IMG/VR virus record: IMGVR_UViG_3300032291_001823 | Location: 1 to 64,000 of that record | DNA length: 64,000 nt | Source of the DNA: a virus | Strand: one strand, 5' to 3' | Part shown: one piece after another, positions 2,786 to 56,144 of the stretch | How positions within the stretch are numbered: the first letter of the stretch is position 1 | Layout: each line of letters begins with the position of its first letter | Program-made: the position numbers and the translations under genes | The notes under the pieces: model-generated | Seen by the model: the letters and a program-made list of their open reading frames with translations, nothing else | What the model was told of the DNA's origin: nothing | Database searches by the model: none

Positions 2786-2810
2786 AATTGATTGATTTTA
2801 AATTGATTAT

Positions 2811-2846: not shown

Positions 2847-2849
2847 GCA

Positions 2850-3068: not shown

Positions 3069-3086
3069 ATTTATGGATTTTGGTTA

Positions 3087-3239
3087 CTATTGATTAGCTT
3101 GAACCTTATAGTAGTTAGAAATGTGTATTAGTCTTTCAACTAATTGTTCATCACTTTCTTTTGCTATAACTACAAGATCCTCATATTGAAGCTCATCACC
3201 AGAAAGCTCCAATATTGTGTCAATTAGATGTTCTCTCAT
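3087..3239 (-). CDS. small acidic hypothetical protein (50 aa)
   Basis: MREHLIDTILELSGDELQYEDLVVIAKESDEQLVERLIHISNYYKVQANQ; starts 1 nt after the upstream stop. Confidence 0.65.
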   Translation of the reverse strand: MREHLIDTILELSGDELQYEDLVVIAKESDEQLVERLIHISNYYKVQANQ

Positions 3240-3240
3240 A

Positions 3241-27796: not shown

Positions 27797-28269
27797 TGAG
27801 AACCAAGATCGATTGGAGATCGGCAAGTAGAGAGAACTATATAAATTTTTGCAAGAAACATCCAGATGTAAACCTATCATTTGATGCTTGGAGGGATGTT
27901 ATCTATAGATTTAACGAAGCTTTCAGAAATTACATTTTAGAAACTGGAAACAGAGAAAAGCTTCCTTTTGGATTTGGAGAGTTTTCAATAAACAAAAAGA
28001 AAAGGAAGAAACACAAAGGTGCAGAAAGTGAGTTTGTAAATCTCGCTATAGACTGGAAGAAAACCAAAGAGAAAGGGAAAGTTATTTACAATTTCAACTA
28101 CCATACAGAAGGATATTTCTTTGGATGGATTTGGTTTAAAGAAACAGCAAGATTAAAAAACTGTAACTTTTGGTATTTCAAACCTTCAAGAGTTACATCA
28201 AGAATGATAGCACATTACATCAACGCTGACGAAAAATACCAACACATTTACAAAGAATGGAAGAAATAG
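27796..28269 (+). CDS. IHF/HU-like protein of crAss tail module
   Basis: KLPFGFGEFSINKKK...IDWKKTKE...YNFNYHTEGY. Confidence 0.75.
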   Translation: MRTKIDWRSASRENYINFCKKHPDVNLSFDAWRDVIYRFNEAFRNYILETGNREKLPFGFGEFSINKKKRKKHKGAESEFVNLAIDWKKTKEKGKVIYNFNYHTEGYFFGWIWFKETARLKNCNFWYFKPSRVTSRMIAHYINADEKYQHIYKEWKK

Positions 28270-28294
28270 TTTTTACAAATAGAAAGATACAAAA

Positions 28295-29224
28295 ATGAGC
28301 TACTACTATAAATATAATTTTGTAAGCCCAGAACCAGTTTTTTCCGTTATAAAGGAAGAACTGAAAAGCTATTTTGATACAGGAGCTGTTGATGATCTTC
28401 TGTTTCCTACATACTTGGATAAGTGTCTTAGGAAACTTGGAAGAGCTACGTATGAAATTCAAGAAACTTATTTGACAATAGAAGACTTTGAAGCAAGGCT
28501 TCCTGACAACTTCTTTGCTGTAAGAGAAGCTTGGATGTGCACATATGTTGATGGCTATCCTTACAGGTCAGCAAACTCATTCTATTCACAAGCTGCTTCT
28601 CAAACAACAATTCAAGTTTCTCCTATAATTGTAGGTGGTGGTGATGTTTGTGGCAATCCTAGTTGTACAAATCCTTCATGCTCAGGCACTTGTATGCCTG
28701 AGATACAGGCTGTCTACAAGACAAACAATGAGCTGAATATAGCCTACCAAAAATCATACCTACTTAAGCCAGGAAACATCTCTGTAAAAGCTCATTGCTC
28801 ATTAGATTGTGCAAACATTGGGGCTTCTTCTGCAGACAGTTTTGATATAAGGGATAACAAGTTTGTAACAAACTTCAGACAAGGTATTGTCCATCTCGTA
28901 TTTTATGCATATGACTATGATCAGTCAGGAAATCAAATGATTCCTGACAACTACCGTATAAGAGAATATGTTGAAGCGTTTATCAAATATAAAATATTTG
29001 AAACTCTTTCTAATCAGATAAACGACGAGACATTCAATCAAGTTCAACAAAAGCTTGTTTACTATAAACAATTGTCAGATGAAGCATTTATAATGGCTGA
29101 CATAGAAATAAAGAAACAAGATCCTTACGCAAAGCAAAGAAGAATCAAGCAAGATTTGAACAGGTTCAACATGTACGAACTGCCTAATAGGACAAATAGA
29201 TATGGCTGGAGAAGAAACGGGTAA
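28295..29224 (+). CDS. tail tubular/ring protein
   Basis: ARLPDNFFAV...FVTNFRQGIVHLVFYA...MIPDN; lies immediately before the muzzle gene. Confidence 0.7.
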   Translation: MSYYYKYNFVSPEPVFSVIKEELKSYFDTGAVDDLLFPTYLDKCLRKLGRATYEIQETYLTIEDFEARLPDNFFAVREAWMCTYVDGYPYRSANSFYSQAASQTTIQVSPIIVGGGDVCGNPSCTNPSCSGTCMPEIQAVYKTNNELNIAYQKSYLLKPGNISVKAHCSLDCANIGASSADSFDIRDNKFVTNFRQGIVHLVFYAYDYDQSGNQMIPDNYRIREYVEAFIKYKIFETLSNQINDETFNQVQQKLVYYKQLSDEAFIMADIEIKKQDPYAKQRRIKQDLNRFNMYELPNRTNRYGWRRNG

Positions 29225-33857: not shown

Positions 33858-33876
33858 AACCTTAAAATATTATAAA

Positions 33877-34482
33877 ATGGCACAAACAGTATTAATAACA
33901 TTGACTACGGCAGGAGCTGATACAGGACCTTTTAATCTATTTTCAAATGTAGATGGTTATGTATCTGCGTTTCAAACAGGAGTGGCGAAAGCTTCTCTTG
34001 TTTCAGGATTTACATCTACAGTTGTTCCTGATGGAACATCTATAATAAGGGTGAAGTCTACAAGTGTTCTTTGTCCAAACTTTATAGATTTGGCAGTTTC
34101 TGGTGTCACCACCACCACAACCACCACTACACAAGATCTTATTCAGGTGATTCTTTATGGTAGGCATGATCCAGCTGCTTCTACATTCCCACTTTTGGCA
34201 TTTGCATATTCACAAAACGGAGGAGTTTCATGGACTCAAGTGGGTGCATCTTTTAACGACACAACTTGTACCCAAAGAGCTGTTATCAGTGTACAAAGAA
34301 ACTCATCTCTTTCAATAAAAGTTGTTCAAGATGGAAACGTTGGAAATACATGGCAATCAAGTAGAAGTGGTACAAGCTGTCCTGCTTTTACAATATTAAA
34401 CTGTATTTGGCCAGCAGCAACTGCAGCAAATTCAAATACATACTACTTTACAGTGAATGGTGATAATCAAGGAACTTGTTAA
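33877..34482 (+). CDS. virion protein: TGPF N-module, Thr linker, variable C-domain
   Basis: MAQTVLITLTTAGADTGPFNLFS...VTTTTTTTTQD... Confidence 0.7.
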   Translation: MAQTVLITLTTAGADTGPFNLFSNVDGYVSAFQTGVAKASLVSGFTSTVVPDGTSIIRVKSTSVLCPNFIDLAVSGVTTTTTTTTQDLIQVILYGRHDPAASTFPLLAFAYSQNGGVSWTQVGASFNDTTCTQRAVISVQRNSSLSIKVVQDGNVGNTWQSSRSGTSCPAFTILNCIWPAATAANSNTYYFTVNGDNQGTC

Positions 34483-34491
34483 GAATAACAA

Positions 34492-35361
34492 ATGGCTAAG
34501 ACAATAATCATAAAGTTAACTAGTGCAGGCAGAAGAACAGGCCCCTTTCAGATATTAGATGATAGGGGCAATGTTCTTGCCAATGATGTTTCTAAACAAA
34601 ACATCATTGATGGCTTTACAGTTAGTGTTGCTGATGAAACAAAGGTTATTGTAATAAAATCTCTATACACATGCTGCAACACCTCAATCAACGTCTCAAT
34701 AGGAACAGCTACAAAGGAGGAACTAGCAGCTCAACAATTCAAAGACACAAACACTGCATCTCTTTGGAGGCATTTGACAAACACCACTATTTATAATAAA
34801 TATTACGGCTGTACAAATCCTTACATTATAGAATATTCATTTGCATTTAGATATCAAGATGAGATTCTTCAAAATATAAAAGACTATACAAAGGTGTATC
34901 AATACATTCCTTCAGAATATGGTGTGTTTGATGACAATCTTAAAGTTGAAATAGACAACCAGTATTTTGATAAATCAATTCTTTACAATGGTCAGCAGTC
35001 TTCTGGTGTGTTGAAACTTGTTCCAAAACCAATCAACAACCTGAGTGACTACATGAAATATCCTATTTACAGCGCAGACAGTAAAACAATAACATTTACA
35101 AAAAGCGATAACTTCTACCAGTATAATACATTTTGGTCTTTGGTAAGAGATAAGTCTAAACCACTGTTCCTATCAACATGTGAGTCTCTTTCAATTGACA
35201 AAGTTGTAAACCAATCTAATATGGACTACTCTAAAAGATCCTTTAAGAAGGAACCTTTGAGAGCTAAAGAACTTAAAGTTAGACATATTCTTGATTCAAG
35301 AAGCGACGTACATTTAGTTTCACAATTCTTTGTAACAGCAAACCAAATCTCTTACAAATAA
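34492..35361 (+). CDS. TGPF N-module fused to probable muzzle C-terminal part
   Basis: MAKTIIIKLTSAGRRTGPF...; SLWRH...YNKYYG...PYIIE...FDKSILYNGQQSSGVLKL...LRAKELKVR resembles crAss muzzle C-termini. Confidence 0.65.
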   Translation: MAKTIIIKLTSAGRRTGPFQILDDRGNVLANDVSKQNIIDGFTVSVADETKVIVIKSLYTCCNTSINVSIGTATKEELAAQQFKDTNTASLWRHLTNTTIYNKYYGCTNPYIIEYSFAFRYQDEILQNIKDYTKVYQYIPSEYGVFDDNLKVEIDNQYFDKSILYNGQQSSGVLKLVPKPINNLSDYMKYPIYSADSKTITFTKSDNFYQYNTFWSLVRDKSKPLFLSTCESLSIDKVVNQSNMDYSKRSFKKEPLRAKELKVRHILDSRSDVHLVSQFFVTANQISYK

Positions 35362-35362
35362 C

Positions 35363-37834
35363 ATGGCTAACAAGATTACATGCACATGTGGACATTCCTG
35401 GAATAAATCAGATTCCAGTAAGAAGGATGCAACTGTATGTCATATATGTGGAAAAGATAACACTATGAAAAATGGAGGATGGTTAGATAAATATGAAGCT
35501 CCAAAAGCCCAGAATGGTATAGAAGGAACCATGGGAGGTCTCACTGACAAGGGATTTAATTATAATGGTGCATGGGGTGGAACAATGCAGAATGGTGGAG
35601 GTTTAACATTCCTTGAACCTACAAGTAGAAAGTTACCAAAAGGATATGTTATTCCATATAACACTCCTAGTACAGAGTTAGCAATTTCTGTAGGTGGTGA
35701 AAATGGAGAACCAGCTTATTTAATTCCATCATTTAAGTATGGTAGACATTTAACAGATAAAGATGCTAAAGCTGAATTTAGAAAAACAGGAGAACATCTT
35801 GGTGGTCCATTTAAAACATGGCAAGAAGCTGATGAGTGGGAAAGAACAGTGAGACATCCGTATGTAGAGAAAGGACAAAACATTCCTACACCTCTTAGAA
35901 GATGGGGAAAAGATTTTGCAATGGGTGGGTCTATGCCTGGTGCTGTAGGATTCACGTACGCACGCACAGGAAGTATTCCTTCTAATGGTCCTTATGCAAA
36001 GAAGACAAAGGCTAGTGCACAAGATGGTACAAATGTAAAAAAACCATCGGTTAAACTTTCTCCTGATGAAATAAAAATGGAGCGTTTAAAACAGTATGCA
36101 CAACAAGCTTCTAGAAAAGAAAACCCCAAGTTACAGTCTAGAGGATCTACACCTGATGCTGTTAGAAAGAAGTTGCATGATGATGCTCAAAAGGCAAAAC
36201 TAAAAAACCAAATACTAAAAGGTGCTGACATTGCTACAGACATAATGCAAGTTGGAAACTTTGTTCCTAATCCAATAGGTCAAGCTATTGGTAAAGTTGG
36301 TAATGCAGCTGGTGCTTGGATAGATGCTGCGCAGGCAGCTGGTGATCTTTATAATAGAAATTATGTATCTGCTGCAATAAATGCAGCAAGTGTTGCACTA
36401 CCTAATGTACTTGCAAAGAATGAGTTTAGAAGAAATAGTAAATATTTAAAACCAGGACAACCTCTATACCCATTTAGTCCACAAGCAAGAAATAACTTTA
36501 TTGATAGAGAATATTACATAGAACCTTTTACAAAGGTGAGAGGTATGACAGATAAATCTCTATTAGCAAATCGTGCATTGCTTGGAGTACTTGGTGCTGA
36601 AACAGCTTATGATTCTTATCAGAATGGTGGTGAAATGAAATACTACCAAGAAGGCTTGGATTTCAAACCTAAGACAATCAGTGAAGATGGTTCCATTATA
36701 ACACCTTATGGACAATGGGAATATCCTGGTGAGATAACAACAATTCCATCTAACGAAATAACAATGGAAGGAGTACCTTATCCTGTCCTTGGAATATCAG
36801 ACACTGGTGATACACAGATGATGTATCCTGAGGAAGAATATGAGTTTGATGGAGAATCAGTTACAGAATACCCTGTAATGCAAAAAGGTGGACGTGTTCC
36901 TGTATACACAGAGAATCCAAGAGATCCTAGACTTAGAGCTTATCAGGATAGTTTAAAGTTGCATAACCTTTCTTTAAAAATAGCTAATAGACCAAATGGT
37001 GATATAAGTTATGGAAGAAAGCCTGAAGGTAAGTTTAGTAAAACTTTTACTGCAGCAGATGCTATCGATTACTTATATCCAGTTACTCCTGATGAAATAG
37101 CAATGGTTAAACTGAGTAATAAATCTAAAATATTACCTACAAGACATTATCCAGGAGAAGGTGGTGGTGTACACTTTAAAAAACCAGTGCAACCTGTAGA
37201 ATATAGAAAACCAGAACCTACAACGGTGTATGTTGATGATCTTAACGATCCAAGACTAAGAGCATACCAAGATAGCTTATCTCTTTCTTCAAGACCAAGG
37301 CAAAATCCTAATCCAATGATATCTATTCAGGAGTGGGAAAAGTCAAGAAGCAGTAGTGCTAAAAATTTTAAAGAAAAAGGAATAATGCCAATAGGTATAA
37401 GGGAGTTTTCTGAACAACCTTATAGGAAATCAGAAGCTGTATTTGCAAAACCTAAACAAAAAGTAGAATATAGAAAACCACAACCAAAGAAAGAACAACC
37501 TGTTAAGAAACAAGAACAATCTAAACCTGTTGAGAGAAAGCAGAACGTATATGAAGGTTCTCCTGTATATTCTCCAGGAACAGGAAGTGGTCTACCATCA
37601 GCTCTTATAGGTTTTACTAATCAACAAGGTGACACAACATATATTAAGCCTGAAGACTACGAAAGGTTTGCTGTTCCTAAATATGGAAAAGAGTTTATAG
37701 AGAGTAAGAAGAAACAGAGGAACGGTGGTGTTAACAGTGCTGATGCTCAACCTATTAAGAAGCTAGATCAATTGCTTAACTTTACAAACTATAATAAACC
37801 ATCCAAAGGTGGATGGCTTGATAAATACAACTGA
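35363..37834 (+). CDS. modular cargo/ejection-type protein with repeated xQxGG motifs
   Basis: 823 aa, position between muzzle and vRNAP, about 11 motif copies, internal duplication. Confidence 0.65.
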   Translation: MANKITCTCGHSWNKSDSSKKDATVCHICGKDNTMKNGGWLDKYEAPKAQNGIEGTMGGLTDKGFNYNGAWGGTMQNGGGLTFLEPTSRKLPKGYVIPYNTPSTELAISVGGENGEPAYLIPSFKYGRHLTDKDAKAEFRKTGEHLGGPFKTWQEADEWERTVRHPYVEKGQNIPTPLRRWGKDFAMGGSMPGAVGFTYARTGSIPSNGPYAKKTKASAQDGTNVKKPSVKLSPDEIKMERLKQYAQQASRKENPKLQSRGSTPDAVRKKLHDDAQKAKLKNQILKGADIATDIMQVGNFVPNPIGQAIGKVGNAAGAWIDAAQAAGDLYNRNYVSAAINAASVALPNVLAKNEFRRNSKYLKPGQPLYPFSPQARNNFIDREYYIEPFTKVRGMTDKSLLANRALLGVLGAETAYDSYQNGGEMKYYQEGLDFKPKTISEDGSIITPYGQWEYPGEITTIPSNEITMEGVPYPVLGISDTGDTQMMYPEEEYEFDGESVTEYPVMQKGGRVPVYTENPRDPRLRAYQDSLKLHNLSLKIANRPNGDISYGRKPEGKFSKTFTAADAIDYLYPVTPDEIAMVKLSNKSKILPTRHYPGEGGGVHFKKPVQPVEYRKPEPTTVYVDDLNDPRLRAYQDSLSLSSRPRQNPNPMISIQEWEKSRSSSAKNFKEKGIMPIGIREFSEQPYRKSEAVFAKPKQKVEYRKPQPKKEQPVKKQEQSKPVERKQNVYEGSPVYSPGTGSGLPSALIGFTNQQGDTTYIKPEDYERFAVPKYGKEFIESKKKQRNGGVNSADAQPIKKLDQLLNFTNYNKPSKGGWLDKYN
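36902..37485 (+). repeat. tandem ~100-aa internal duplication
   Basis: VYTENPRDPRLRAYQDSL...FKKPVQPVEYRKPEP versus VYVDDLNDPRLRAYQDSL...FAKPKQKVEYRKPQP. Confidence 0.85.
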
Positions 37835-37835
37835 T

Positions 37836-40517
37836 ATGAAAGCAAAAATGCTCAAAATTGCTGGTGTTAAGTCTGAAGCTGAGTTCTACAAGAAGTTTCC
37901 TACAGAGGAAGCATTTATGGCTAAGCATGGCAAAGCTTTTAGCAAAGCTCAAAAAGGAATCAAACTGAGTGATCCTGATGTATCATCTGGTTTGAAAAAT
38001 ATTATAGAAGGGTCTATTCAACTGAAAGAGGATATAGCTAATGTGAAGAAGGCAAAGCAGTATGGTAAGATTGCTGAACTTGCACAGAAAGCTGTTCGAA
38101 AACCAGAGGTTCCCAGAAGAAGATATATTAGACCAGAAGATACAATGGTTAATCCTATGAATCCTATGGGATCTGGAGCAGACTTCCTTCAGATGGAAAT
38201 GGGAGGAAATGTTACAGAAATTCAAAATATGTACAATCCTGGAGACATTTATTCTGACATGGGATATGAGCCTCTTGATGATAGTAATATAAAACAATAC
38301 GATGATGGAGGAAAACTTTTTGGATTAAATTCTAAAGAATCTGGTCAACTTGGTGGAGGTCTTGGAAGTCTTATTGGTGGTGGATCAGGAAGACCTTCTG
38401 GAGCAAGTCAAGTTGGAAGTGGCGTGGGTAGCATAGCAGGAATGGCAATTGGTGGTCCTCTTGGAGCAGCAATAGGTAGTGCTCTTGGAGGAGCAGTTGG
38501 AGGACTTATTGGAGGCGGTCAAGAAAAGAAAATAAAAGAACAAGAAAAGAAAATAGGAAACCTTGCTTTTCAAAGTGGTGTTGTAGGATTGCAAGATTCA
38601 ATGTCAGCATACATGAAGAATGGTGGTTGGGTTTCTAATGATTGGCAACCACAAGTGATTGCAAAGTTTGGAGAGTATGACGTTAAAGATTTGCTGAAAG
38701 CTCCAAATGATGCAGACATGCTTAGGTCTGGTGGTCATCTTAAAGACTACACAGCTCCTAGTGCAAGAGCTATGTCTACAGAAAGACCTGATTTTCAAAT
38801 GGGTGGAGAGCTTCAAACTTATTGGGGTGGATATGCAGAACCTATTTCTCAAAATCCTTATTTACCTGATGGTGGTGAAACTGTAATGTTTAGAGGACAG
38901 TCTCACGATGAATCTGATGGACAAGGAAGAACAGGAATTGGAATCACCTATGGTGACAATCCTGTAGAAGTTGAAAGGGGTGAACCTGCTGTAAAACTTA
39001 GAGATGGAGGTAGTAATGAAGAAAACCTTGTTGTATTTGGTAATATGAAGATTCCTTCCTACGGAGTTAGTGAGTTGGATGATCCTAAAGCAAAAGGTAT
39101 GAAGTTTAAAACATATACAGCAGGCTTGAGTAAAATTGAAAACAAAGCAAATAAAACAACTGACAAGGCTTTGAAACTTTTAGAAGATACTGACACAGAT
39201 AGTGCTTTTGATCTTCTGTCAATTTCTACAGCTAAAGCAATGTTAAAAGGATCTGACATGAAACTTAAAGATGCAGCTATGAAAAAACAAACAGCTGCTA
39301 GTATACAAAGTGCAATATTAGATACAGCAGAAGAAATGGGAGTTGAAAGTGATTCTCTTTCTAGAGGAAAAATCAAATCTGCTAAATCTGGAGGTAAGTT
39401 TACATCTGCTCAGGTGGGAATTAATCAACCTTTGACACCAATCCCTCCTGTAAATACATATTATCAAATTCCAGTTAGAGAAAATCAACTTCTTAAAACA
39501 ACTGCTGCTGTACAAGAGTTGGTTAAACAACAGCAACAACAACAAGTAAAAAAAGCTGCACCAAAATCTAAAGTTACAAAAGCTCCTGCTATATCAGCTC
39601 CTATAAAAGATAGACTTTTTGCACCAGTAGCACCTATAAAAAGAGACATACCAAAACTTCCAGCTATTAGTTCTACTATTGATCCAGAAATTTCAAAACG
39701 TGTAATTTCTGATTTAGAAAATCTTAAATTATCTAAACCAGGTGAGCCAGAAGATGAGTTTGATATGTCAGATTTTCTACAAATGGTAAACCCTTATTTA
39801 AGACCTGGTATACAAAATCGTTTAGACCCAGGTCAACTTGCTCCAGAGATGTTTGCTCTTTCAGCAAATCAACTTGAGCCAGTACAAGCCCAACTCTACA
39901 CACCTCTTCTTGAGGAAGTAAGTAGAATCTCTTTACAAGACCAGCTTAATGAAATACAAGCTGAGGCAAATGCTGCTAGAAGAATGGTTGGTGGTAATCC
40001 AGCAGCTCAAGCAGCTATAGCAGCTCAAGCAGCATCTGCTAAGAACAAAGTGCTTGGTGAACAATTTAGAGTTAATCAAGCAATGGAAATGGAGTCTCGT
40101 AGAAGAAACTTAGCTACATTGAATGATGCCACTCTTAAGAACCTTGGTATTCTTGATCAACAATATCAAAGGCAGTCTCAGGCTAAATCTGCTACAAAAG
40201 CACAAGCATTCACTGCTCTTAGTTCAATTGCTGATAAGATTGCAAAGAATAAAGCTGAAACTCTGAGCACAAATGTAATGGCAAACATGTATCCACAATA
40301 CACGTTTGGTCCTAATGGTAGAGTGTTTAACACTGGTTTGACAGAATTTAATATTCCTCAAGTTGGTGCCACATCAACCACAAAAGATAGTAAAGGAAAT
40401 GATCTTATTCCTATATATGGAAAAGACAATAATATTACAGGATATAGGGTGAAAGAGGATCCTAAGCCTAAAAAAGGAAGAAACGGTTCTATCGTAAAAG
40501 CAATAAAAAATCTATAA
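37836..40517 (+). CDS. cargo/ejection protein with glycine-zipper TM segment
   Basis: Start moved to ATG 37836. GSGVGSIAGMAIGGPLGAAIGSALGGAVGGLIGG; GQSHDE...VEVERGE motif; coiled-coil C-region; about 9 xQxGG motifs. Confidence 0.7.
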   Translation: MKAKMLKIAGVKSEAEFYKKFPTEEAFMAKHGKAFSKAQKGIKLSDPDVSSGLKNIIEGSIQLKEDIANVKKAKQYGKIAELAQKAVRKPEVPRRRYIRPEDTMVNPMNPMGSGADFLQMEMGGNVTEIQNMYNPGDIYSDMGYEPLDDSNIKQYDDGGKLFGLNSKESGQLGGGLGSLIGGGSGRPSGASQVGSGVGSIAGMAIGGPLGAAIGSALGGAVGGLIGGGQEKKIKEQEKKIGNLAFQSGVVGLQDSMSAYMKNGGWVSNDWQPQVIAKFGEYDVKDLLKAPNDADMLRSGGHLKDYTAPSARAMSTERPDFQMGGELQTYWGGYAEPISQNPYLPDGGETVMFRGQSHDESDGQGRTGIGITYGDNPVEVERGEPAVKLRDGGSNEENLVVFGNMKIPSYGVSELDDPKAKGMKFKTYTAGLSKIENKANKTTDKALKLLEDTDTDSAFDLLSISTAKAMLKGSDMKLKDAAMKKQTAASIQSAILDTAEEMGVESDSLSRGKIKSAKSGGKFTSAQVGINQPLTPIPPVNTYYQIPVRENQLLKTTAAVQELVKQQQQQQVKKAAPKSKVTKAPAISAPIKDRLFAPVAPIKRDIPKLPAISSTIDPEISKRVISDLENLKLSKPGEPEDEFDMSDFLQMVNPYLRPGIQNRLDPGQLAPEMFALSANQLEPVQAQLYTPLLEEVSRISLQDQLNEIQAEANAARRMVGGNPAAQAAIAAQAASAKNKVLGEQFRVNQAMEMESRRRNLATLNDATLKNLGILDQQYQRQSQAKSATKAQAFTALSSIADKIAKNKAETLSTNVMANMYPQYTFGPNGRVFNTGLTEFNIPQVGATSTTKDSKGNDLIPIYGKDNNITGYRVKEDPKPKKGRNGSIVKAIKNL

Positions 40518-40558
40518 CTGATTCAGTTATACCAACTTACCAAGTTTCGTTATGATGT

Positions 40559-40590
40559 CTTGGTTATTATAATATATTAAATTACATTTG
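40559..40590 (+). promoter_or_regulatory. Bacteroidota-type promoter
   Basis: CTTG 40559-62, 20-nt spacer, TACATTTG 40583-90; ATG at 40606. Confidence 0.6.
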
Positions 40591-40605
40591 CTAACTTAAC
40601 ATATC

Positions 40606-43248
40606 ATGGCTTCATTTACTGACCAAATAATGCAATTTAACCCATACGTTCAGCAATTGCCTGTTGAGGCAATGGCTAAAGTGGGTATGTATAAACAACA
40701 GAAGTATGAAGAAGGGGTACAGAAAATCCAAAGCTATATAGATAATGTGGCTGGATTGGATGTTGTTAAACCATTACATAAACAATATCTTCAATCCAAG
40801 CTTGATGAGCTTGGAGGAAAACTGAAGAGCGTAGCTGCTGGAGACTTCTCAAACTTCCAATTAGTTAACTCTGTAGGAGGAATGGCTACACAAATTGCAA
40901 AAGACCCCACAGTACAAAATGCAGTAGCATCAACTCAATATGTAAGAAAAGGACAGCAAGATATGGAGACTGCTAGAAAAGCAGGTAAATCTTCTGTACA
41001 AAACGAAGCATGGTTTAATAATAAAATAAACGGATGGTTAAATAACAATGACATAAATGCTTCTTTTTCGGACTATTATGTTGAATATACAGATATTGAA
41101 AAGAAGCTTAGGGATGTTGCAAAAGATGTCCACGAATACGATCGATCTATAGAAATGCCTTTCCAAAGAGATAATGGTGGCAATATTTTATATTTTGATA
41201 AAAATGGTAATGTTACAACTCCAGACAAAGGGCAGAGTAGGATTGATGAAGTGCTGCTAAAAACTAAAGTTAAAGGGAAATCTGCTCAAAAGATTCTTGA
41301 TAACTTTTACAGTAGTATTGATGAGAATGATAAAAGACAATTGAATATTGACGGTTGGTATCATTATAGAGGATACACTGGAGACTCGTTTAAACAAAAA
41401 ATAACAAGTGATATAACTTCTTCATACAATATGAAGAAAGACATACTATCAAAAGAAATTGTCAAGATATCAACAGAGCTCTCTGGAAATTCTAAGCTTA
41501 CAAAGGAACAAAGAAATGCTCTTACAGCAAAGATGAACGAGTATACAGATCTTGTAAACAAAGGTGGAATAGATAAAGAGCTTAGTGAGAAACTTAGTGA
41601 TATTGGTAGAATTAGCGATGATGAACTTAAGGGTTCAGTTTACATGGAAAAAACATTAAATAAACTGGCCACTGATATTTCCTACCAAGATATAGAAACA
41701 GAATATAAAGACAACCCTTACTTCAATGCATTGATGAAGAAGAAGGATTTAGCATTTAAATATTCAGAAGCTGTTAGAGACCAGAAGAATAAAGATAGAG
41801 ATTACGGGTTAAGTCTAGAAAGACTTAATATAGAAAAATTCAAGTTAACAAAAGATGCTGCTGGTAAAGATATTATATTCGAAAACTTAGGAACATCTAC
41901 AGATAAAACTCTTCCTACACTTGGGGATTTGCAAAATGGCATCACTGGTCTTGATGACGAAATGCAAAAGTTTAAACGAGAGAACGCTCCTTTTGTTATT
42001 TCAGGATATAACGAGATGAATGATGTTCAGAAAAGAGAGGCAATGAATAGCCTAGTTGATCAATACCTAGCAAACCCATCAAGCATCACTGATAATAACA
42101 AAAGAAAAATTCTTGATCAGTGGATTGGTATGCAAACTGATATGACTAGGAGAATGAGCAATTATGTAAACATTACACAAAAGGCAAAACCTTTTGACGA
42201 CGCAATTAATAATATTGCAGACTCTCTTCCTGGATATGTAAAAAATGGTACACAAATATATAGTGCTAAAGAAATCAGAAGTATAACTAGTGATATTAAT
42301 AGATTTACTTCTTCTTTACAATTAAACAAATTTGGAGTTCCTATTGGAGGTGGGGTGACAGATTGGGGTAAAATGAAACAAGCATACGCTAATTCAAAAT
42401 ATCTTCCAATAATTAATGTTATTGAGAAAAGACAAAAAAGTGGATTGGCATCATTAGTTGGTGAAGAAATGGAGATTGCAAAAACACTTGATAATATTCG
42501 TAGTCAAGTTAGAGAGAAATCAGCTAAGATTTCAAAAGATAAAGATAATTTTATTAATACAGAACTTGGAAAAATAATGCCTCAGTATCAAGATGAAGTT
42601 GGTACATTGGATAAAGAAGATAAGGTTACAATGGGAAAAGTTGATAATCTTATTGGTAACATGTATGGGATAGCAAGTCAACTTGGTGGAAAGATTGATT
42701 CTGAAAAGTTTGACCCTGCCACCATAACAGCATGGAGAACAGGTAAGCAAGCTAGTGATTTAAAATATGTTGTAAAGAGAAAAGCTGATATGTCTCAAGG
42801 AACTCTTCAAATATTTAATGGAAACGAAGTTCAAGAGATTCCACTTAACTCTAAACAACTAGGTAGATATTTTCCACAAGCAGCTAAAGGACATCCTCTA
42901 GATAGTGCGAAATATATGGTAATGAGTTCTCCTACAAAAACAACAAACGCAGCTGGAGTAGTTGATGGTGGACCATCTGGAGCATTAAATGCTGCATTTA
43001 CAGGAGATCAGCTTCCGCTATTGGCAGGAAGTAAATATTCAAGTTTGGTAAGATTTGACATTGAAGGCGCTTCTGACAACGATGGTGGAGACGACGATCT
43101 ATACCAAATTAGAATGTATGTAAATGATAATGGTATTTGGAAAGATGATGTTGTGAACAAAGAGGGCTTTGCAAAATTAGATGGTGTATTTGCAATTATG
43201 CAAAACATTGGTACAAAGAAATATCAAGAAATAAAAGATAGCAAATAA
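40606..43248 (+). CDS. cargo/internal virion protein
   Basis: FNPYVQQLPVEAM...QQKYE N-terminus typical of the gene preceding crAss vRNAP; TAATG-coupled to it. Confidence 0.65.
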   Translation: MASFTDQIMQFNPYVQQLPVEAMAKVGMYKQQKYEEGVQKIQSYIDNVAGLDVVKPLHKQYLQSKLDELGGKLKSVAAGDFSNFQLVNSVGGMATQIAKDPTVQNAVASTQYVRKGQQDMETARKAGKSSVQNEAWFNNKINGWLNNNDINASFSDYYVEYTDIEKKLRDVAKDVHEYDRSIEMPFQRDNGGNILYFDKNGNVTTPDKGQSRIDEVLLKTKVKGKSAQKILDNFYSSIDENDKRQLNIDGWYHYRGYTGDSFKQKITSDITSSYNMKKDILSKEIVKISTELSGNSKLTKEQRNALTAKMNEYTDLVNKGGIDKELSEKLSDIGRISDDELKGSVYMEKTLNKLATDISYQDIETEYKDNPYFNALMKKKDLAFKYSEAVRDQKNKDRDYGLSLERLNIEKFKLTKDAAGKDIIFENLGTSTDKTLPTLGDLQNGITGLDDEMQKFKRENAPFVISGYNEMNDVQKREAMNSLVDQYLANPSSITDNNKRKILDQWIGMQTDMTRRMSNYVNITQKAKPFDDAINNIADSLPGYVKNGTQIYSAKEIRSITSDINRFTSSLQLNKFGVPIGGGVTDWGKMKQAYANSKYLPIINVIEKRQKSGLASLVGEEMEIAKTLDNIRSQVREKSAKISKDKDNFINTELGKIMPQYQDEVGTLDKEDKVTMGKVDNLIGNMYGIASQLGGKIDSEKFDPATITAWRTGKQASDLKYVVKRKADMSQGTLQIFNGNEVQEIPLNSKQLGRYFPQAAKGHPLDSAKYMVMSSPTKTTNAAGVVDGGPSGALNAAFTGDQLPLLAGSKYSSLVRFDIEGASDNDGGDDDLYQIRMYVNDNGIWKDDVVNKEGFAKLDGVFAIMQNIGTKKYQEIKDSK

Positions 43249-46200: not shown

Positions 46201-49200
46201 AAGATCAAAAAGATATAGAACATACATCTGGAACAATAGCTTCCAAAGAAAATACAGCAAAAACAAAAGCTGAGTTTGATGTAGAGAGTAAGAAGAAAGG
46301 AATTGAATGGTTATTTATATCAACTAGTGGTGCGTCTGAAGACTGGGAATCAGGTAAACTTAGTCCTAGTCAGCAACGTGCTATTACACTTAGGAACAAT
46401 TACAGAAACCTTCCTAACAGAAACAACCTCAGAATAATCCTTGTTACACAGAATCAAGAAAACTCTCTTGGTTTATCTGGACTGACAGCAATGTCAATGG
46501 CTAACACTGGTGTAGATTCTTCTACATACACAGACTTGAATGATGGATTTGTTGGTGCAGTGTATGTTGAACAAGATGGGGCTGATGTATATTTTGTAGA
46601 TAAGAGTGGTAAGAAACTTGGAAAGGTTGGTGATCCTGTGGACATTAATCAAGTGGTATTTGATACAATGCCTACAACAAGTCTTACATGGAGTGATAAA
46701 GAAAATAGGTATAGAGCTGGAGATGAGGATAAGGCACAAGAGTATTCAGATAGGTGGAAAGCAAAACGCAACCAACTGTTTAACACTCCAGAAGGAAAAT
46801 ATGAAATCTATAAGTTTTCTGTAAGCCCTGGTATTCCAGACATAGCAAACCTTAGCGATAACAACACTGTTGGTGAAACTCTTATTCCTGAAAATGAGAT
46901 TGTTTACCAAGAAGGACTTGTTGTAATCCCTACAACAGGAAATATTCAACACCAAGGACGCAACCTTAAGTTTCCTGATGGTGTTCCTGTTTTCCAATAC
47001 AGAGATGTATTGACATTCCTCAAGACACGTAAGTTCACTAAAGCTGAAGCACGAACTATTTTTGAGGTGATGAAAAAGATGTCTGAAGACATCAAACAAA
47101 AACTTGACCAAGGAAAGAAAATAAAGAGCAACAAGAAGTATACAAGGTTCCTTCAAAATGTTCTTTATTGGAGGAAATCACCAAAGACAGATAAGAATCA
47201 GATATTCATTGACTATGATACAATGGATTTCTTCTTTGGTGGAAAGAGATATGATTTGACAAACCTTGGTGCAAGTGAGGCTGAAATTATAGATCAGCTT
47301 GAGAATCTCTACGCTAACATCAATAATGACTCTCTTACAAAAAACTTTAGTGAGAAGTTTAATGAATATTATATTGATGAGTCTAAAAATCTTGCAACAA
47401 GAACATGGGATAATTATCAGTCTTATCTGTTGTCTTCAAAGTATCCAGATGGGTCTAATAGGTCAGTGGTAGACATTCCTTTGACAACTCCTATTCAGAA
47501 ACCTACAGAGCTTAAGCCTTTTAATTTCAAACAAAAGTATTCCATTCTTGAGGGAGTGGAACTTCCTTCTATTGAAGTGAAGCCTGTTGTTAAACCAGAA
47601 GCTCCTACAGCACCTGCTCCTTCTGGAAAGAAGATAGGTGATTACACCGTAGATGGTGTAACGCAAAACGTATACCAACTTAAGAACGGTCCTGTTGGAT
47701 TTACAGCCACTATTAAGGATGGTGAAGTTTTTGTAGAGGTTGAATCTAATGACACAATAAAGAAAATTACTGATAATAAGGATGCTCTTAACAATACAAT
47801 AATTCCTTTATTAAAAGCAGAAAAGAAATTTGATGCTACAGAAAAAGACGAACAGCATGTTCTTGGTTTTGTTTCTCTCAAAATAGCAAACGATTTACAA
47901 AAACAATTGAATGCTTCAGTTGCTCCTACAACAGCAGCTGTATTGCAGCCTGATGTTTCTCCTCTTGCACAAGTGCAAGGAACAGCTAGGACAGAGCCTC
48001 TTACAACAGCAGTTTCTACAGATGCTAAGACTGATATAGAAGAAACTGGAAATCAGTTACAGGTTATTCAAATGATGACTCTTCGTATAAAGTCTTTGTC
48101 CAAAGAAGAAAGAGCTTTGATGGACAAATACTACGATGTACTAAATGCTGAAGGTTTAAGGAATGGAAAAGAGTTGTCTGAACTGTATTATAAAGTTAAA
48201 AAAGACGGTAGTAATCCTGAGCTAGTAAAGAAGGTAGATGAGTTTCTTTCAGAAGTTAAGAAACTTCAAGCAGCTCCTGCTGTTACAGATGTTAAACCAA
48301 CTACTCAGTTTACTCAATCTTTTGGAGCCTTTACTGTCTATGAAGGAAGTGACGGATCATATGATGTACAAGATAATACTGGTGAAGGCATAATAGCTGA
48401 GTATGTTAAAACAAAAGAAGAGGCTATACTCATAGCTAAGCGAGCTGATATAGAGAAAAGAAAACAAGAAGAGATAAAACAAAAAGCTCCATACGTTTTA
48501 ATAAAAGGAAGCTATGAGGGAGAGAATAAGACAATCGGTACATTAACTTTCAAAAGTAATGTAGACAATATATATGCATACGATGAAGGAAGTACAAACA
48601 TATCTAAAGACGCACTAAGAGGTGATAAGAGACTTTCAAAAATAACTAAAGAACAATACGACGCTGCTATAAAAGCACCTGAGTTAATAAAAGAAATTGA
48701 GGCTGAATATAATGCAAAATTAGATGTCTTAGAAGGGATTAAACCTACTGCACCAACAAATTTTGGAGGAACTAAACCACCTCCTAATACAGAATATAGA
48801 AGAGTGGGTGCTGATGGAATAGAAAGAATTTCTAGTGAAGAGCTTGAGTTGTTCAAAGCTTGGGCTGCTGAAAAGGTTCCTACTATTCCATATACAGTGA
48901 TGGAGAATGTTCTTACAACACATGATGGTGAGAAAGCATGGGGTGCATTTGAAAATGGTGTTGCTAAGTTCTATAGGTCTGCAGCTAGAGGTACAGAATA
49001 TCATGAAATAGGAGAAGCTGTATGGAACGGTATGCTTTCTCCTGAAGAGCGTCAGGCTATTCTTGATGAAGAAAGACAAAAGTCTGGTAAGTTTAAAGAT
49101 AGACAATCAGGAAAAACTTATTCCTATGATGATCCAAATGTAACTGACCAGATGCTGAAGGAGAGAATCATGGATGATTTTGCTGAGTTTAGACTTGGTA

Positions 49201-55200: not shown

Positions 55201-56144
55201 ATATAAAAAGTGAAGATAGAAAAATCCTTACACTGAATGAGGCTTATAACTATCTCGATGTACAAAGAGACTTCCTTTTAGTTCCTGCTGTTGTTACAGA
55301 TAGAAAGACTGGTGATATGATTGACGTTGAGTCAGGAACCACTATGGCAAAATCAATGATTGCTCAAATGAAAGCAAAAGGTGATATGTCATACAAGGAT
55401 GTATATGGTTATCAGAAGGTGAGATATGATAATGGAGATCCTGTTCTTACATATGATAAGGATGGAAATGCAATACACATTTACAAACTTATCAATCTAT
55501 ATGGAGATGGAGTGTTTGCTTCTGAGTATTATAGTGTAAACAAACCTTCTGTGTTCAACAATGGTACAAAGAAGATTGATAATGAGATTCCTAACGCAGA
55601 CATTATTAACTACTTTGCTCCAAGAACAACAGATCCTAAACCAATAGCTCCTACTCCTATAGAACCTAAACCTGCTGAAGAACCTAAGAAGAAAGAACTA
55701 TTCACTCCAGAGAAAGGAATTGCTCAGAAATCATTCAGAGGCAAGCCGTTGAACTTTGTAGACAAGATTCCTACACAAAAGGAAACAGTTGTTGCAATGC
55801 AGAACAATAGACAAACTGGTGTAATCACTATAGATTATAAAGCCATGGTTCAAAAGTTTGACGATAAGGCATGGACTAAACCAGCTAAGCAACTCGATGG
55901 ATCTTTTGCTACACCTTTAGCTGAAGATGCATTTAAAAGTGCAGAGGAATGGTTTACCTTTGCATTGATTCATGAAGTGAAGCATGATACAATTTTTAAA
56001 GAACCAGGAGAGACAACAGGACAATACGAGGATAGGATTAATCAAGCTGCTATGAAAGACCTTGAGGAAAACTATACAAAACCTCCAGTTGTAGATAATT
56101 TTCCTGACAAGAATTTGAATGTTAAAGATCAAAAATGTAACTAA
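43248..56144 (+). CDS. virion-packaged DNA-dependent RNA polymerase (large multidomain cargo protein)
   Basis: 4298 aa; GFRIPTQ...VPSEITTKSGSDFDIDK with DFDID at 53067-53081; ETKRIKSF; N-terminal hydrophobic Gly/Ala segments; zincin-like motifs. Confidence 0.92.
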   Translation: MAIFKEELITNTPLEGDPIPQLALGTPQLSAMPTLPNIEVSGGSVNKSIEGLDSSQLSKLAKLPGQGGGANLIPLSEVAANKRYNTYVRGMDLENIYGMQQSAWAQLGNSAVKMAGLAAGTFAQSFATIPNTISAFKNGTAALSGGPDSYEAAIDDWTKNLEDYFPNYYTRKEKENPYLAIVPFMPGSANFWGDKIIKNLGFTAGAIGGALVQDAIIGAATEGIGAAPLVASQLGKASLWLNKLYAGSTKVDKVLDLAKTVGKTEQQILNIKRLGEIAAGTKVTNGFRYGMGIYGSSRTEAAIEARDGYRQVKDELIKEYKSQNPGKEPISSDLEEIEKYATDAMNTRFGINMALLTVSNAVQFGNLFKSFTSAQKGISGQLTRDIDEVGKIGLKEGSLDLFERKGAQTLSGKIWESVQPKLPNILSEGVYEEGGQYAAEKGTYDYFTRKYKNLSNPLYKDNWSTTVEAVNSTVKGLKDQFGTDEGLENMIVGAISAMISGGIMSKIDTVRGQGSDERLQSSINILNQYGLTGVLSSNFENTLNSAGIAKEMDEAVKANDVFKYKNLKNDMFINFVQSRIPSGMHEVTIEQLRMLKDLDKAEFEKSFGMDFNSSNKSTVNEYVDSLIDEANQIKKISDSIDFTFKNPFKKIDNPTTTEEGIETSRFNDFNKWKAELTFLAAKIPHVNNRLDSIQQSVNSISPIVTNDLLSQLTNKESLKDLSTSYEEKANQLNKTITEFTSIQDKKRINNQVKALRTASERINLGLTNGVDGKLFDYLLNFELNNQDPTASRQVGPENTTDLFTYGHDINRLNSLKDDVSELYDNLTGEKGFNKFMDQGEQLRSGAIPEEEDKEEKEIVVKEGPQFTNKAGVKETFEEGREYQIPAGKKAKIDKIADDRWQVTAPDGNITFYESEEKAKEQVDSINEEFGNLQKAKVIAINPDGTLKVEDINGDIYNVDPSKFEGYEKVETEQEKLQKFKQDVEEDQKDIEHTSGTIASKENTAKTKAEFDVESKKKGIEWLFISTSGASEDWESGKLSPSQQRAITLRNNYRNLPNRNNLRIILVTQNQENSLGLSGLTAMSMANTGVDSSTYTDLNDGFVGAVYVEQDGADVYFVDKSGKKLGKVGDPVDINQVVFDTMPTTSLTWSDKENRYRAGDEDKAQEYSDRWKAKRNQLFNTPEGKYEIYKFSVSPGIPDIANLSDNNTVGETLIPENEIVYQEGLVVIPTTGNIQHQGRNLKFPDGVPVFQYRDVLTFLKTRKFTKAEARTIFEVMKKMSEDIKQKLDQGKKIKSNKKYTRFLQNVLYWRKSPKTDKNQIFIDYDTMDFFFGGKRYDLTNLGASEAEIIDQLENLYANINNDSLTKNFSEKFNEYYIDESKNLATRTWDNYQSYLLSSKYPDGSNRSVVDIPLTTPIQKPTELKPFNFKQKYSILEGVELPSIEVKPVVKPEAPTAPAPSGKKIGDYTVDGVTQNVYQLKNGPVGFTATIKDGEVFVEVESNDTIKKITDNKDALNNTIIPLLKAEKKFDATEKDEQHVLGFVSLKIANDLQKQLNASVAPTTAAVLQPDVSPLAQVQGTARTEPLTTAVSTDAKTDIEETGNQLQVIQMMTLRIKSLSKEERALMDKYYDVLNAEGLRNGKELSELYYKVKKDGSNPELVKKVDEFLSEVKKLQAAPAVTDVKPTTQFTQSFGAFTVYEGSDGSYDVQDNTGEGIIAEYVKTKEEAILIAKRADIEKRKQEEIKQKAPYVLIKGSYEGENKTIGTLTFKSNVDNIYAYDEGSTNISKDALRGDKRLSKITKEQYDAAIKAPELIKEIEAEYNAKLDVLEGIKPTAPTNFGGTKPPPNTEYRRVGADGIERISSEELELFKAWAAEKVPTIPYTVMENVLTTHDGEKAWGAFENGVAKFYRSAARGTEYHEIGEAVWNGMLSPEERQAILDEERQKSGKFKDRQSGKTYSYDDPNVTDQMLKERIMDDFAEFRLGKLPARSLKEKVLRFFRSIIEFFKQFVQKPSMKEQLFKAIDTGRFKERVISESAKNEFAEYRAVEGLTEEQTHDFVQDITARVFQIAFGTNMSLYNPEQITAPQIFAEIKESYQQEGKLDLLSENTWRQLIGKTRDFLRTFKIDFDEEGVLGINDENYNKNDYAREAFSTDWKKSSPFPIKLILGTLTETVPTSQIDTTSLDLPKQKLSSVNGYKILNFARTFATALDKFANTNSVTKLVDKLIELSRYDSNYVRLFTRLKGDRNTVSIDFSKFEEQDWRLFINFYQTFTKQKPNAVIQYIGENNEVYNGAANLFSAVEQFKQGWIENVKTLANDNTSLIYYYSPDKTYRTKKLSDIPIGNPQQMVEFLDKLGINFPFEVYQNLKDPQQKAFGRAISAIHKYASEKEIGKVTGETLTINGQLNTLAELYIKATNPNIDSTYFGVDGKRQQSYADSNAPSVFENTFNEIETLDELLSARPELNDVFSKNSLILKKGGPFFDKDGKRTDRKLKVGYIQGTKDTVDDKGTSTSKLGLGSRFTQEFNQNLSGDYYILIPADGSTEWMLNLGNQISFEDFEGNEANDQIHKVFRGYLEDEIELALSDRSYLRNVKPRAKELRFFKDILSENLLTNLNKLIEKGDKEKIKEFIDENISEINANIDDYVNGTVDDSIRDFKNNSQIFQINEDAYSFPLMNDKFAKEQDVNKYNMSEDELKALFKFANTNYIINNIEFHKILFGDPYQFAIKENQLDETKRIKSFLSPRRVTFDSPEFNTWLNSKNKAGDISLLPGDPGYHVHKSYTSTITTADVNIVGSIAMMEGVPKDIKDAYAKTNEADAASILMDTTYREIKNKNGQWSREAEDWHQWQMAYTRNRMSAKGLYTYTNDNLKKQDEKTISSPSPKHTLEILKPIVTGSKHNKNTIDLVLDKFSQMPMYYSMIEGTNLENLYLKMMKEDVGYTIMISGRKVGAESLHSLYNQDGSFNQEAFNNRIEVPWKAYGIQVETTTEDDKYQTRGSQLTKMSSMDLFSNGEPLSKNPERQAVIRKAYDRNKDILDKMHENSYYELLNKLGVEDLGDSFNVVDRKKLSESLEHEMLRRELSDNAIDTVRTDENGQFRIPFESSPAYTQIRSLMFSMVDKALVSPKMSGGAHVQVPVTLWESATKGRSLAYKTKDGWKKITKEAYDKLDDNEKKKVALTDDTLKFYTKDAPYCEVMIPHWFKDKFPKNKFKTDEDILNYLNNTEEGRKILTGIGFRIPTQATSSVEVFRVKGFLPKYMGATVIVPSEITTKSGSDFDIDKLNMYLKSVYVNARGEVKLIKYLGSEGKTKEFFRGEFDRILEGKAVKKAELLEAVDILAYNLADPKNLLKRYDGILNVLLEEYNDISDLADSLMKDLEKLGDESVQADLKEKFVNQAYKQSLENEYYESLEELLTLPEVFQRLISPVSDGGLKKLSERLDELTGFDESKIKNRLLNRSYMTALRHAFVSAKKWVGIAAVNITGHSLFQKSQIYLDPERFAFLPKRDKELLGDGSVVLPHNTVVVNGKTYVSMSGAKTEDGTQYISDRLSGYGTSFVDVAKDPYIMKIIKSELVVGTFMYLERIGVGEKAAMFLNQPIIAKYLSHLDSIGYKNLFNKGNITNALESFPSKGETFRAAGIDVNSLGSNIEKYYKNGGKFDTDIDNAVQQKIFFEFLKYAKMAEFSFNLTQGYNYDTTRFGSGDALFRKQVKTQKARDKNIFSSIDKVFDTSFIGEQAFLIDKSTEALGEYLKLENPKLRIISDSVLRPFAENQYLSADDYERIGNRITSSFLDFIIQTKTTLSDEIKELLVDPATAVATQLAEAQAKFPENKLLNELQVVSSDRFDGAKSIKLRTNDKSAYSENLYQGMFRQLRDTPETNALYNNIVKLAILQGTYQSAISIRNVIPIEDFSKTIAPVIANLVATPEIEAFAKGAFQRNNWKNQDVWRTISPKFFVNDEPIGQVETYSGDVIDIYQYNSPAFPNVANLNIKSEDRKILTLNEAYNYLDVQRDFLLVPAVVTDRKTGDMIDVESGTTMAKSMIAQMKAKGDMSYKDVYGYQKVRYDNGDPVLTYDKDGNAIHIYKLINLYGDGVFASEYYSVNKPSVFNNGTKKIDNEIPNADIINYFAPRTTDPKPIAPTPIEPKPAEEPKKKELFTPEKGIAQKSFRGKPLNFVDKIPTQKETVVAMQNNRQTGVITIDYKAMVQKFDDKAWTKPAKQLDGSFATPLAEDAFKSAEEWFTFALIHEVKHDTIFKEPGETTGQYEDRINQAAMKDLEENYTKPPVVDNFPDKNLNVKDQKCN

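Follow-up and report, generated by a model that had tools for sequence, protein, structure and literature searches.

The locus

The most abundant known viruses include the crAss-like phages, and the stretch of DNA considered here, a window of 64,000 nucleotides taken as positions 1 to 64,000 of IMG/VR record IMGVR_UViG_3300032291_001823, comes from a divergent, uncultured member of that group. Its subject of interest is a pair of adjacent open reading frames (ORFs), A and B, whose products are punctuated by copies of a short glycine-containing motif, for which the term 'joint' is used below, and, in A, by a longer peptide built on it, GGWLDKY. Pfam assigns the ORF at 29202-33857 to the Crassvirus muzzle family (PF25731, E = 1e-40), and the crAss major capsid, ring 1, ring 2 and P22-type portal families were found elsewhere on the 93.5-kb record, which is 81% complete. 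GenBank phages gave no near DNA match and a single short protein match, to a Leptolyngbya phage.

From the muzzle gene onward come ORFs of 201 and 289 amino acids and then A, B, C, D and E, an order that mirrors gp44 – gp45 – gp46 – gp47/49/50 of ΦcrAss001, where cargo proteins occupy the head and tail until infection and are then ejected (PMC10172136). The 4298-residue ORF D matches gp47 (its N-terminal part) together with gp50, the 1645-residue ORF E matches gp49, and C is assigned to gp46 from position alone. A and B hold the gp45-like position, just downstream of the muzzle gene and upstream of gp46-like and RNA polymerase-associated genes, and the order of the neighbours around them is kept across 63 IMG/VR loci. 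The initial annotation, made by a model from the letters of the window, had taken it as known that genes at this position encode proteins packaged in the head and ejected, and the muzzle gene upstream and the match of B to the portal-bound domain of gp45 both support this. B probably starts at the ATG at 37836 and not at the A-overlapping GTG at 37809, since all its orthologues open MKAxxLKIAGVK.

A recurrent joint in A and B

All of the motif copies and segments that the initial annotation had listed are present in the translations of A and B. In A they are MKNGG (residues 34-39), AQNG (49-52), MQNGG (75-79), FAMGG (185-189), AQDG (219-222), YQNGG (419-423), MQKGG (506-510), QRNGG (785-789) and SKGG (814-817). 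A and B have four copies each of the tight form, [MFYA][QKE]xGG, and against these eight the remaining ~19,000 residues that the window encodes have two, so that the motif is indeed enriched relative to the rest of the window's proteome. Shuffles that preserve composition gave means of 0.24 for A and 0.34 for B, with counts as high as those observed in 0/5000 for A and a probability of 0.0006 for B; the loose form has nine copies in each protein, with 2.7 and 3.5 expected from shuffling. Among the sequence-independent GG contexts of the wider family, 63 of 416 fit the tight motif where 15.6 would be expected (p = 8e-21) and, because their flanks are unrelated, the motif recurs in unrelated contexts and is not the repetition of one ancestral piece. 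About half of the independent contexts listed have N or D immediately before the two glycines, Met is the most enriched residue at position -3 (7.9-fold overall, 2.9-fold in independent contexts), and the flanks of the generic motif carry at most 0.2 bit of information per position.

Enrichment extends to other phages, being modest in ΦcrAss001 gp45 (P = 0.009) and clear in gp040 of Cellulophaga phage phi4:1 (P = 0.0007), which shares with A both the motif and a module recognizable by its ITMEGV sequence, and which carries a virion annotation based on tandem mass spectrometry. It does not extend to C, D and E, the remaining cargo proteins; the gp47+gp50 fusion, D, has two copies in 4298 residues (shuffle P = 0.12). 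No description of the joint motif or of GGWLDKY was found in the crAss structure paper (PMC10172136), in the paper on polyvalent proteins (PMC5512222) or by full-text literature search, which for 'WLDKY' returned only unrelated papers.

Is it the DNA or the peptide that is kept? The two GGWLDKY copies of A differ at five synonymous sites, and across loci the motif is written with all four Gly codons (GGA, GGT, GGC, GGG), five Leu codons (TTA, CTT and CTG included), both Tyr codons (TAT/TAC) and both serine codon families (TCA/AGT). Because the motif codons vary synonymously in this way, selection on the motif acts at the peptide, not the DNA, level. The distance from the stop codon of A to the ATG of B also varies among loci, and the two kinds of variation together make it unlikely that the motif serves as a recombination signal in the DNA or as a coupling element in the RNA.

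Module exchange at the joints

An all-against-all comparison of 216 family proteins was surveyed for block ends at which shared sequence gives way to unrelated sequence. Such ends lie within five residues of any GG in 32% of cases at 60% identity or above, 42% at 75% or above and 65% at 90% or above, with a null of 12-13%; when GG or [MAFY][QKE]xG is counted, the figure at 90% identity or above is 82% versus a null of 19%, and one or other of these is present in 229 of the 269 distinct junction contexts. Among mock motifs, SS and [MAFY][QKE]x[SA] are depleted at junctions and NN is near the null. When segments obtained by cuts at GG only were clustered, they chained into one large cluster, because such cuts miss the A-Q-N/D-G joints.

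The same is visible directly in the nearest strain (locus L001), whose DNA is 97.0% identical over 27357-35365 (8.0 kb) and 97.5% over 37880-45203 (7.3 kb). Its A gene, whose product opens MKK-WLDKY, is without three in-frame pieces of the window's A: 35366-35479 (the zinc ribbon to MKNGG), 35588-35923 (residues 76-187) and 36892-37727 (residues 510-788). The second and third gaps each run from inside one motif copy to the equivalent position inside another, TM|QNGG...FAM|GG and MQKG|G...QRNG|G (vertical strokes mark the gap ends), which is the pattern expected of recombination or slippage between two copies of the joint. It is exactly at joints that modules come, go or replace one another, even among near-identical strains, and on both counts, the siting of the motifs at boundaries between unrelated segments and the gain or loss of modules there in orthologues, what the initial annotation had anticipated is what the junction statistics and the L001 comparison reveal. 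Between its A and B genes the same strain also has a 691-nt insert (L001:9195-9885), absent from the window at about 37817-37879, with a Cys-rich ORF of 218 residues (MKTKICKLCKEELS...NVQFVCNRANMMKSN) that has the look of a homing endonuclease and only sub-threshold Pfam hits.

ORF B and gp45

Pairwise BLAST of B against ΦcrAss001 gp45 was not significant and profile comparison alone was: the B-family profile aligned with gp45 by hhalign (95.4%, E = 1.7e-8), residues 318-425 of B pairing with 422-505 of gp45 and FQMGG/YWGG of B standing opposite NAFGG/NTQGG of gp45. By this comparison B is a member of the gp45, or crAss cargo protein C1, family. Across 41 orthologues the GG columns of its portal-binding domain vary little or not at all. 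The candidate glycine zipper of B has a local BLAST match to gp45 136-160, around a predicted transmembrane segment of gp45 at 136-158.

Models were built with AlphaFold2 from family alignments. They have confident modules at residues 1-40, 321-500 and 660-810 of B, and at 1-30, 105-165, 451-545 and 730-785 of A with long low-confidence stretches in between. Of 18 motif di-glycines read against the two models, 12 are in stretches with a predicted local distance difference test score (pLDDT) below 55, and the remainder are at module edges or inside the confident portal-binding domain, where FQMGG comes directly before the first strand and the first hairpin turns at WGG. Foldseek with the models of A and B against the PDB gave no match at E <= 0.001, gp45 not being among the matches listed, and phmmer searches of the PDB with the cargo proteins gave nothing significant.

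In the virion, gp45 residues 425-552 are resolved on the portal and 214-245 in the tail barrel, and one gp45 chain was modelled by the authors from tail to capsid (PMC10172136). The 214-245 segment starts just after SAYGG, ordered gp45 segments beginning at or just after GG motifs, and the modelled chain crosses four more GG sites. GG434 and GG447 lie inside continuous cryo-electron microscopy density, and gp45 is therefore uncleaved there.

The most conserved parts of the A and B families are predicted to be disordered, for instance A 188-225 and, in B, 'GGNVTEIQNMYNPGDIYSDMGYEPL', as would be typical of segments that fold on a partner. Within A 188-225 the invariant residues are G188, G196, Y199, R201, P206, G209, T215 and A219, and by eye the stretch appears to resemble the tail-barrel-bound segment of gp45, SAYGG-PLEFGSGAIGYEF. 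Another of the most conserved parts of the B family that is predicted to be disordered (pLDDT about 30), residues of about 124-155 (window 38205-38300, GGNVTEIQNMYNPGDIYSDMGYEPLDDS), may be a second docking or host-binding peptide.

The GGWLDKY peptide

GGWLDKY stands in A at residues 38-44 and 816-822, the tail of the protein reading KPSKGGWLDKYN. W-L-x-K-Y followed by at most a few residues is the C-terminal end of 154 of 216 family proteins, with zero or one residue after it in the loci read at the DNA level, and many family proteins open M-x-x-WLDKY or hold internal copies after a joint. There are 19 fused A+B proteins, in which the link is NFTNYN-x-MAKAKKGKKL; 18 of the 19 have no WLDKY anywhere, and the N-terminal helical domain of B, which all separate B genes encode, is present in none of them. 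Since GGWLDKY is confined to cases in which separate genes encode A and B and the N-terminal domain of B is present, it is probably a docking peptide, with that domain as its putative receptor, and covalent fusion would make both redundant. Of the capsid-loading tag that the initial annotation had envisaged, this co-occurrence leaves the idea plausible for the longer GGWLDKY and not for the generic joint.

Across 36 IMG/VR loci (among L001-L063) the variable residue of WL-x-KY seems to go with residue 3 of B, D or E being found with A or K, and N, S or T with D. The pattern looks like charge compensation; it is confounded by phylogeny and is not used as evidence.

Parts of A and their variation

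The features of the two genes, and two motifs in ORF D, are collected in Table 1. A search of a 5.8-billion-protein collection gave 1,769 matches to A among 8,000 candidates scored, a lower bound (a family of >1,700 metagenomic proteins). The homologues are 460 to 1,420 residues long, with the best local alignment spanning just 14-77% of A, and the gene at A's position in the 63 IMG/VR loci, taken as ORFs ending WLDKY, encodes 240 to 2,042 residues.

Table 1. Features of ORFs A and B, with HExxH-like motifs of ORF D (window coordinates)
Feature	Position	Strand	Evidence or remark
ORF A, 823 aa, hypervariable cassette-array cargo protein	35363..37834	+	At least 1,769 mosaic homologues; position shared in 63 IMG/VR loci
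Cassette 1, CxC...CxxC zinc-ribbon module closed by MKNGG, aa 1-39	35363..35479	+	No DNA match in L001; weak Zn-ribbon Pfam hits only
GGWLDKY copy 1, aa 38-44	35474..35494	+	Synonymous codons unlike copy 2
Cassette 2, aa 76-187, LTFLEP..LIPSF..KTGEHLGG..DFAM, between TM/QNGG and FAM/GG	35588..35923	+	Absent from L001
Most conserved family segment, aa 188-225, GGSMPGAVGFTYARTGSIPSNGPYAKKTKASAQDG, predicted disordered, candidate docking segment	35924..36037	+	Conservation; pLDDT 30-37
Helical Ala/Gly-rich module, aa 232-358	36056..36436	+	Helices 234-358, pLDDT 52-77
YQNGG...ITMEGV beta module closed by MQKGG, aa 419-510	36617..36892	+	Columns 421-509 nearly invariant; pLDDT 83-96 for 451-500
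Cassette 3, aa 510-788, RVPVY..2x DPRLRAYQDSL..QRNG, between MQKG/G and QRNG/G	36892..37727	+	Absent from L001; no Pfam family
C-terminal GGWLDKYN tail, aa 816-823	37808..37831	+	Ending of 154 of 216 family proteins; synonymous codon variation
ORF B, 893 aa, homologue of crAss cargo protein C1 (gp45)	37836..40517	+	hhalign; 41 colinear orthologues
B N-terminal helical domain, aa 1-40, MKAKMLKIAGVKSEAEFYKKFPTEEAFMAKHG, proposed GGWLDKY receptor	37836..37955	+	pLDDT 78-85
Glycine zipper/candidate membrane segment, B aa 173-231	38352..38528	+	PF13488 E = 0.003, below its cut-off; hydropathy 1.46
Portal-binding-domain homologue, B aa 318-425, with FQMGG, YWGG, LPDGG, LRDGG	38787..39110	+	gp45 422-505 alignment; pLDDT 71-93
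HEIGE, ORF D aa 1919-1923	49002..49016	+	Aligned with gp47 zincin motif HEAFH
HEVKH near ORF D C-terminus, aa 4242-4246, unverified zincin candidate	55971..55985	+	Language-model similarity to M85/M91 0.80-0.81, sub-threshold

The sub-threshold glycine zipper apart, neither A nor B has a Pfam or PHROGs family, and no enzymatic domain was recognized in A with either collection. Cassette 1 is modelled with strands (pLDDT about 70-77), and cassette 2 has a folded core (pLDDT 83-90). A language-model comparison has cassette 2 (112 residues) looking like clusters with Tox-URI2 (42% of members) and GIY-YIG, at sub-threshold scores of 0.86-0.88, on which it could be an ejected nuclease. The helical Ala/Gly-rich module reaches a hydropathy maximum of 1.08, under the usual level for a transmembrane segment, and structure alignment searches with the model of A gave generic helical-hairpin matches only, to 251-367. 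The ITMEGV module also heads phi4:1 gp040 and the Leptolyngbya phage protein. Cassette 3 is internally duplicated, with DPRLRAYQDSL at both 36923-36955 and 37247-37279, and with KKPVQPVEYRKPEP (window 37178-37219) pairing with AKPKQKVEYRKPQP (window 37445-37486).

Relatives are more forthcoming about what such cassettes can be. Recognizable enzymes are carried by 5-6% of those listed, the cassettes of relatives including Amidase_2, LysM, ART-PolyVal (PF18760), ADPrib_exo_Tox and DUF6973, and in two of them (P0016 and P0010) the enzyme cassettes are flanked by xxxGG. In P0016 an Amidase_2 lies between MQDGG and FQLGG, the very slot that cassette 2 (LTFLEP..FAMGG) occupies in the window. The suggestion in the initial annotation that the modules form a swappable payload has in these enzymes a tangible foundation. 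One relative (P0122) has a SprT-like zincin cassette that scores below its cut-off, and a fused A+B protein (P0137) has, in precomputed Pfam results, a cassette of PF01464, which we take to be the SLT lytic-transglycosylase family.

As to the neighbouring genes, ORF D (window 43248-56144) is one 4298-residue fusion in which residues 92-576 and 1894-2028 are gp47-like and 2806-3596 gp50-like, parts that belong to the crAss virion RNA polymerase set.

Interpretation and alternatives

The reading that we favour, and hold to be probable though far from certain, is that A and B together are this phage's C1 ejection protein, A being a payload array with structural joints and B the conserved anchor. 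B would retain the conserved parts, namely the glycine-zipper membrane segment, the portal-binding domain and the helical C-terminus, and A would be a hypervariable array of modules of ~10 to 280 residues, each closed by a joint. As envisaged, the joint comprises a bulky residue (M/F/Y/A), then Q/E/K, a further residue (often N or D) and two glycines, or else takes the one-glycine form A-Q-N/D-G; its most likely structure is a tight turn made by the glycines and anchored by the hydrophobic residue, by which adjacent modules would be insulated. A chain so jointed could stay extended like beads on a string, storable in the lumen of head and tail and threadable through the portal. Recombination or slippage between joint copies would delete, insert or swap modules, the exchange being in frame because every module ends alike, and the payload (peptidoglycan amidase, LysM, ADP-ribosyltransferases and many further modules) would in this way turn over even between strains. 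Where the genes are separate, GGWLDKY, itself built on the joint, would tether A to the N-terminal helical domain of B.

Several considerations weigh against this. The junction counts cover related sequences and not independent events, and local alignment ends are drawn to conserved motifs, which inflates the precision by a few residues; the L001 comparison is of one strain pair. The fusions share one junction and so probably reflect one event, which makes the co-occurrence maybe one or two evolutionary observations, and one fused form retains GWLDAY near its N-terminus. Low AlphaFold2 confidence is not proof of disorder, and the multiple sequence alignments were mosaic. Cleavage at joints within predicted-disordered linkers may be compatible with the sequence, the completeness of the record is 81%, and a protease of the host would not show up in a phage record.

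Might every joint, and not GGWLDKY alone, be a short docking motif for some multi-copy virion component (the portal wing, the lumen of the tail rings or the interior of the capsid) that loads unfolded cargo? The gp45 segments on the portal and in the tail barrel do start at or beside GG, with AFGGWL opening the portal-bound domain, the motif is maintained at the peptide level, and joints are flanked by highly conserved segments that are predicted to be disordered. However, a specific binding site should carry more information than the 0.2 bit at most per flanking position, the free variation of joint number with cassette number among strains makes stoichiometric docking unlikely, and cargo proteins C, D and E, which need packaging too, are not enriched; we regard this as rather unlikely. 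Another alternative, which we rate as unlikely to a slightly greater degree, is the one that the initial annotation had offered, with the joints cut by a di-glycine-specific maturation protease of phage or host and A and B being polyproteins that yield many small effectors before or after ejection. Φ-Q-x-G-G is reminiscent of the SUMO/Ulp1 and adenain/African swine fever virus (ASFV) pS273R sites, most joints lie in linkers predicted to be disordered and accessible, and some family members begin right at the motif (MKNGGWLD..., MMAGGSLPG...). Furthermore, fused crAss RNA polymerase polyproteins are expected in the literature to be cleaved, a zincin-like domain being named there for a gp65/gp47-type neighbour, and ORF D, as a gp47+gp50 fusion, belongs among those expected to be cut. 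Yet the motif is not enriched in that very fusion and has no tight copy near its presumed gp47/gp50 junction, the gp45-aligned copies are in ordered, continuous density with a single chain modelled across four GG sites, and a cut at the C-terminal GGWLDKYN would free just a hexapeptide. Nor did a protease come to light: PF02902 (C48), PF03412 (C39) and PF04586 (S78) match nothing in the 93.5-kb record at E <= 1, no protease is among the 25 listed of the 35 Pfam families matched by its 78 other ORFs, and HExxH is absent from A and B. A search of 38 long relatives for metallopeptidase (MPTase)/zincin domains gave only one SprT-like hit, below its cut-off. The idea that a zincin of the downstream cargo proteins does the cutting fares no better, as HEAFH of gp47 aligns with a degenerate HEIGE in ORF D; for the HEVKH near the C-terminus of D there is no Pfam hit, and the relatives found are too close to judge conservation of HExxH. 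That cleavage and docking operate together, the joints being sites of a yet unrecognized di-Gly protease that makes of A a polyprotein for up to ~10 effectors in the cell while GGWLDKY loads it on a portal-anchored C1, is to our minds a similarly long shot, though if true it would amount to plug-and-play effector delivery common to thousands of crAss-like phages.

Two further explanations would deny the motif a function in the protein as we picture it, and both strike us as very improbable. One has it as the footprint of a DNA recombination signal or microhomology, or as an RNA element that couples translation of B, which would account for cassettes ending inside motif copies and for the C-terminal copy being just upstream of the B start codon. 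Against it, synonymous sites vary freely within and between genomes, TCA/AGT serine included, the stop-to-ATG distance is variable, and N-terminal and internal copies have no start downstream. The other sees in the Met of M-x-x-G-G an internal translation start that gives nested shorter products from one gene, in keeping with Met being the most enriched residue at -3 and with family proteins that start at the motif; but F, Y and A hold the same position, many joints are without Met, and the proteins starting at the motif may be gene-calling or contig-end effects.

To return to the joints as putative structural punctuation of an ejected protein, there are practical corollaries. A shared joint is a simple rule for cutting long unannotated proteins into modules and for finding payload cassettes, and joints are natural sites for engineered cargo fusions in laboratory phages. 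Payload turnover between strains that are 97-99% identical is as expected at an interface of conflict with the host, and the pairing of GGWLDKY with the N-terminal domain of B is a concrete hypothesis for how variable cargo may be tethered to a conserved portal-bound protein.

Relation to known systems

Di-glycine after a hydrophobic or Q-containing context is familiar from adenain, ASFV pS273R and SUMO/Ulp1, with proteins packed in capsids among those so marked. Unlike in those systems, no clan CE protease, and no other among the Pfam families listed for the record, was found here, and the aligned copies in gp45 are uncleaved.

The closest counterpart is ΦcrAss001 gp45 (PMC10172136). Its gene likewise comes right after the muzzle gene, where A and B are here, and like B it has a portal-binding domain and a helical part at the C-terminus, with a glycine-zipper/transmembrane segment for which B has a candidate; it carries, moreover, the same kind of Φ-x-x-GG motifs (FAEGG, KAFGG, NAFGGWL, FAYGG). 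Unlike gp45, its counterpart is encoded in two parts, A and B, in most relatives and as a fusion in others, and A has a strain-variable cassette array and GGWLDKY; outside the portal domain and the zipper the proteins of this phage have no detectable similarity to gp45.

Polyvalent proteins (Iyer et al. 2017, PMC5512222) have many unrelated domains per polypeptide, to which the modules of A may correspond; like A and B they are encoded beside virion genes, and they are delivered with the DNA, as A and B would be. Relatives of A share with them ART-PolyVal (PF18760), peptidoglycan hydrolases and mosaic, fast-evolving architectures. In contrast, A is without a recognized enzymatic domain, and A and B are without an MPTase/zincin autoprocessing domain; the text of that paper has neither 'linker' nor 'glycine', and no joint motif. 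The Gly-rich motifs of the T-even gp38 adhesins (Trojet et al. 2011, PMC3157838) offer a likeness that is one of analogy only, with no homology claimed: they too punctuate variable segments, with exchanges within or near the motifs. They are, however, a fixed set of five, proposed to form the single structural core of one small domain (PMC3157838), whereas joints vary in number, are mostly predicted linkers and separate whole modules of an ejected protein and not loops of a receptor-binding tip. No glycine core is seen in the AlphaFold2 models of A and B, though these put most joints in low-confidence linkers.

Lastly, the ejection proteins of podoviruses (T7 gp14/15/16, P22 gp7/16/20; Swanson et al. 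2022, PMC8954989), to which, as to the polyvalent proteins, A and B would be similar in their working, are internal virion proteins ejected before the DNA, and with their membrane segment and swappable peptidoglycan hydrolase domain they have been called 'mosaically modular' (PMC8954989). No sequence relation to them was found and no joint motif has been described for them, and the number of cassettes is far higher in the present case, with turnover at the level of strains.

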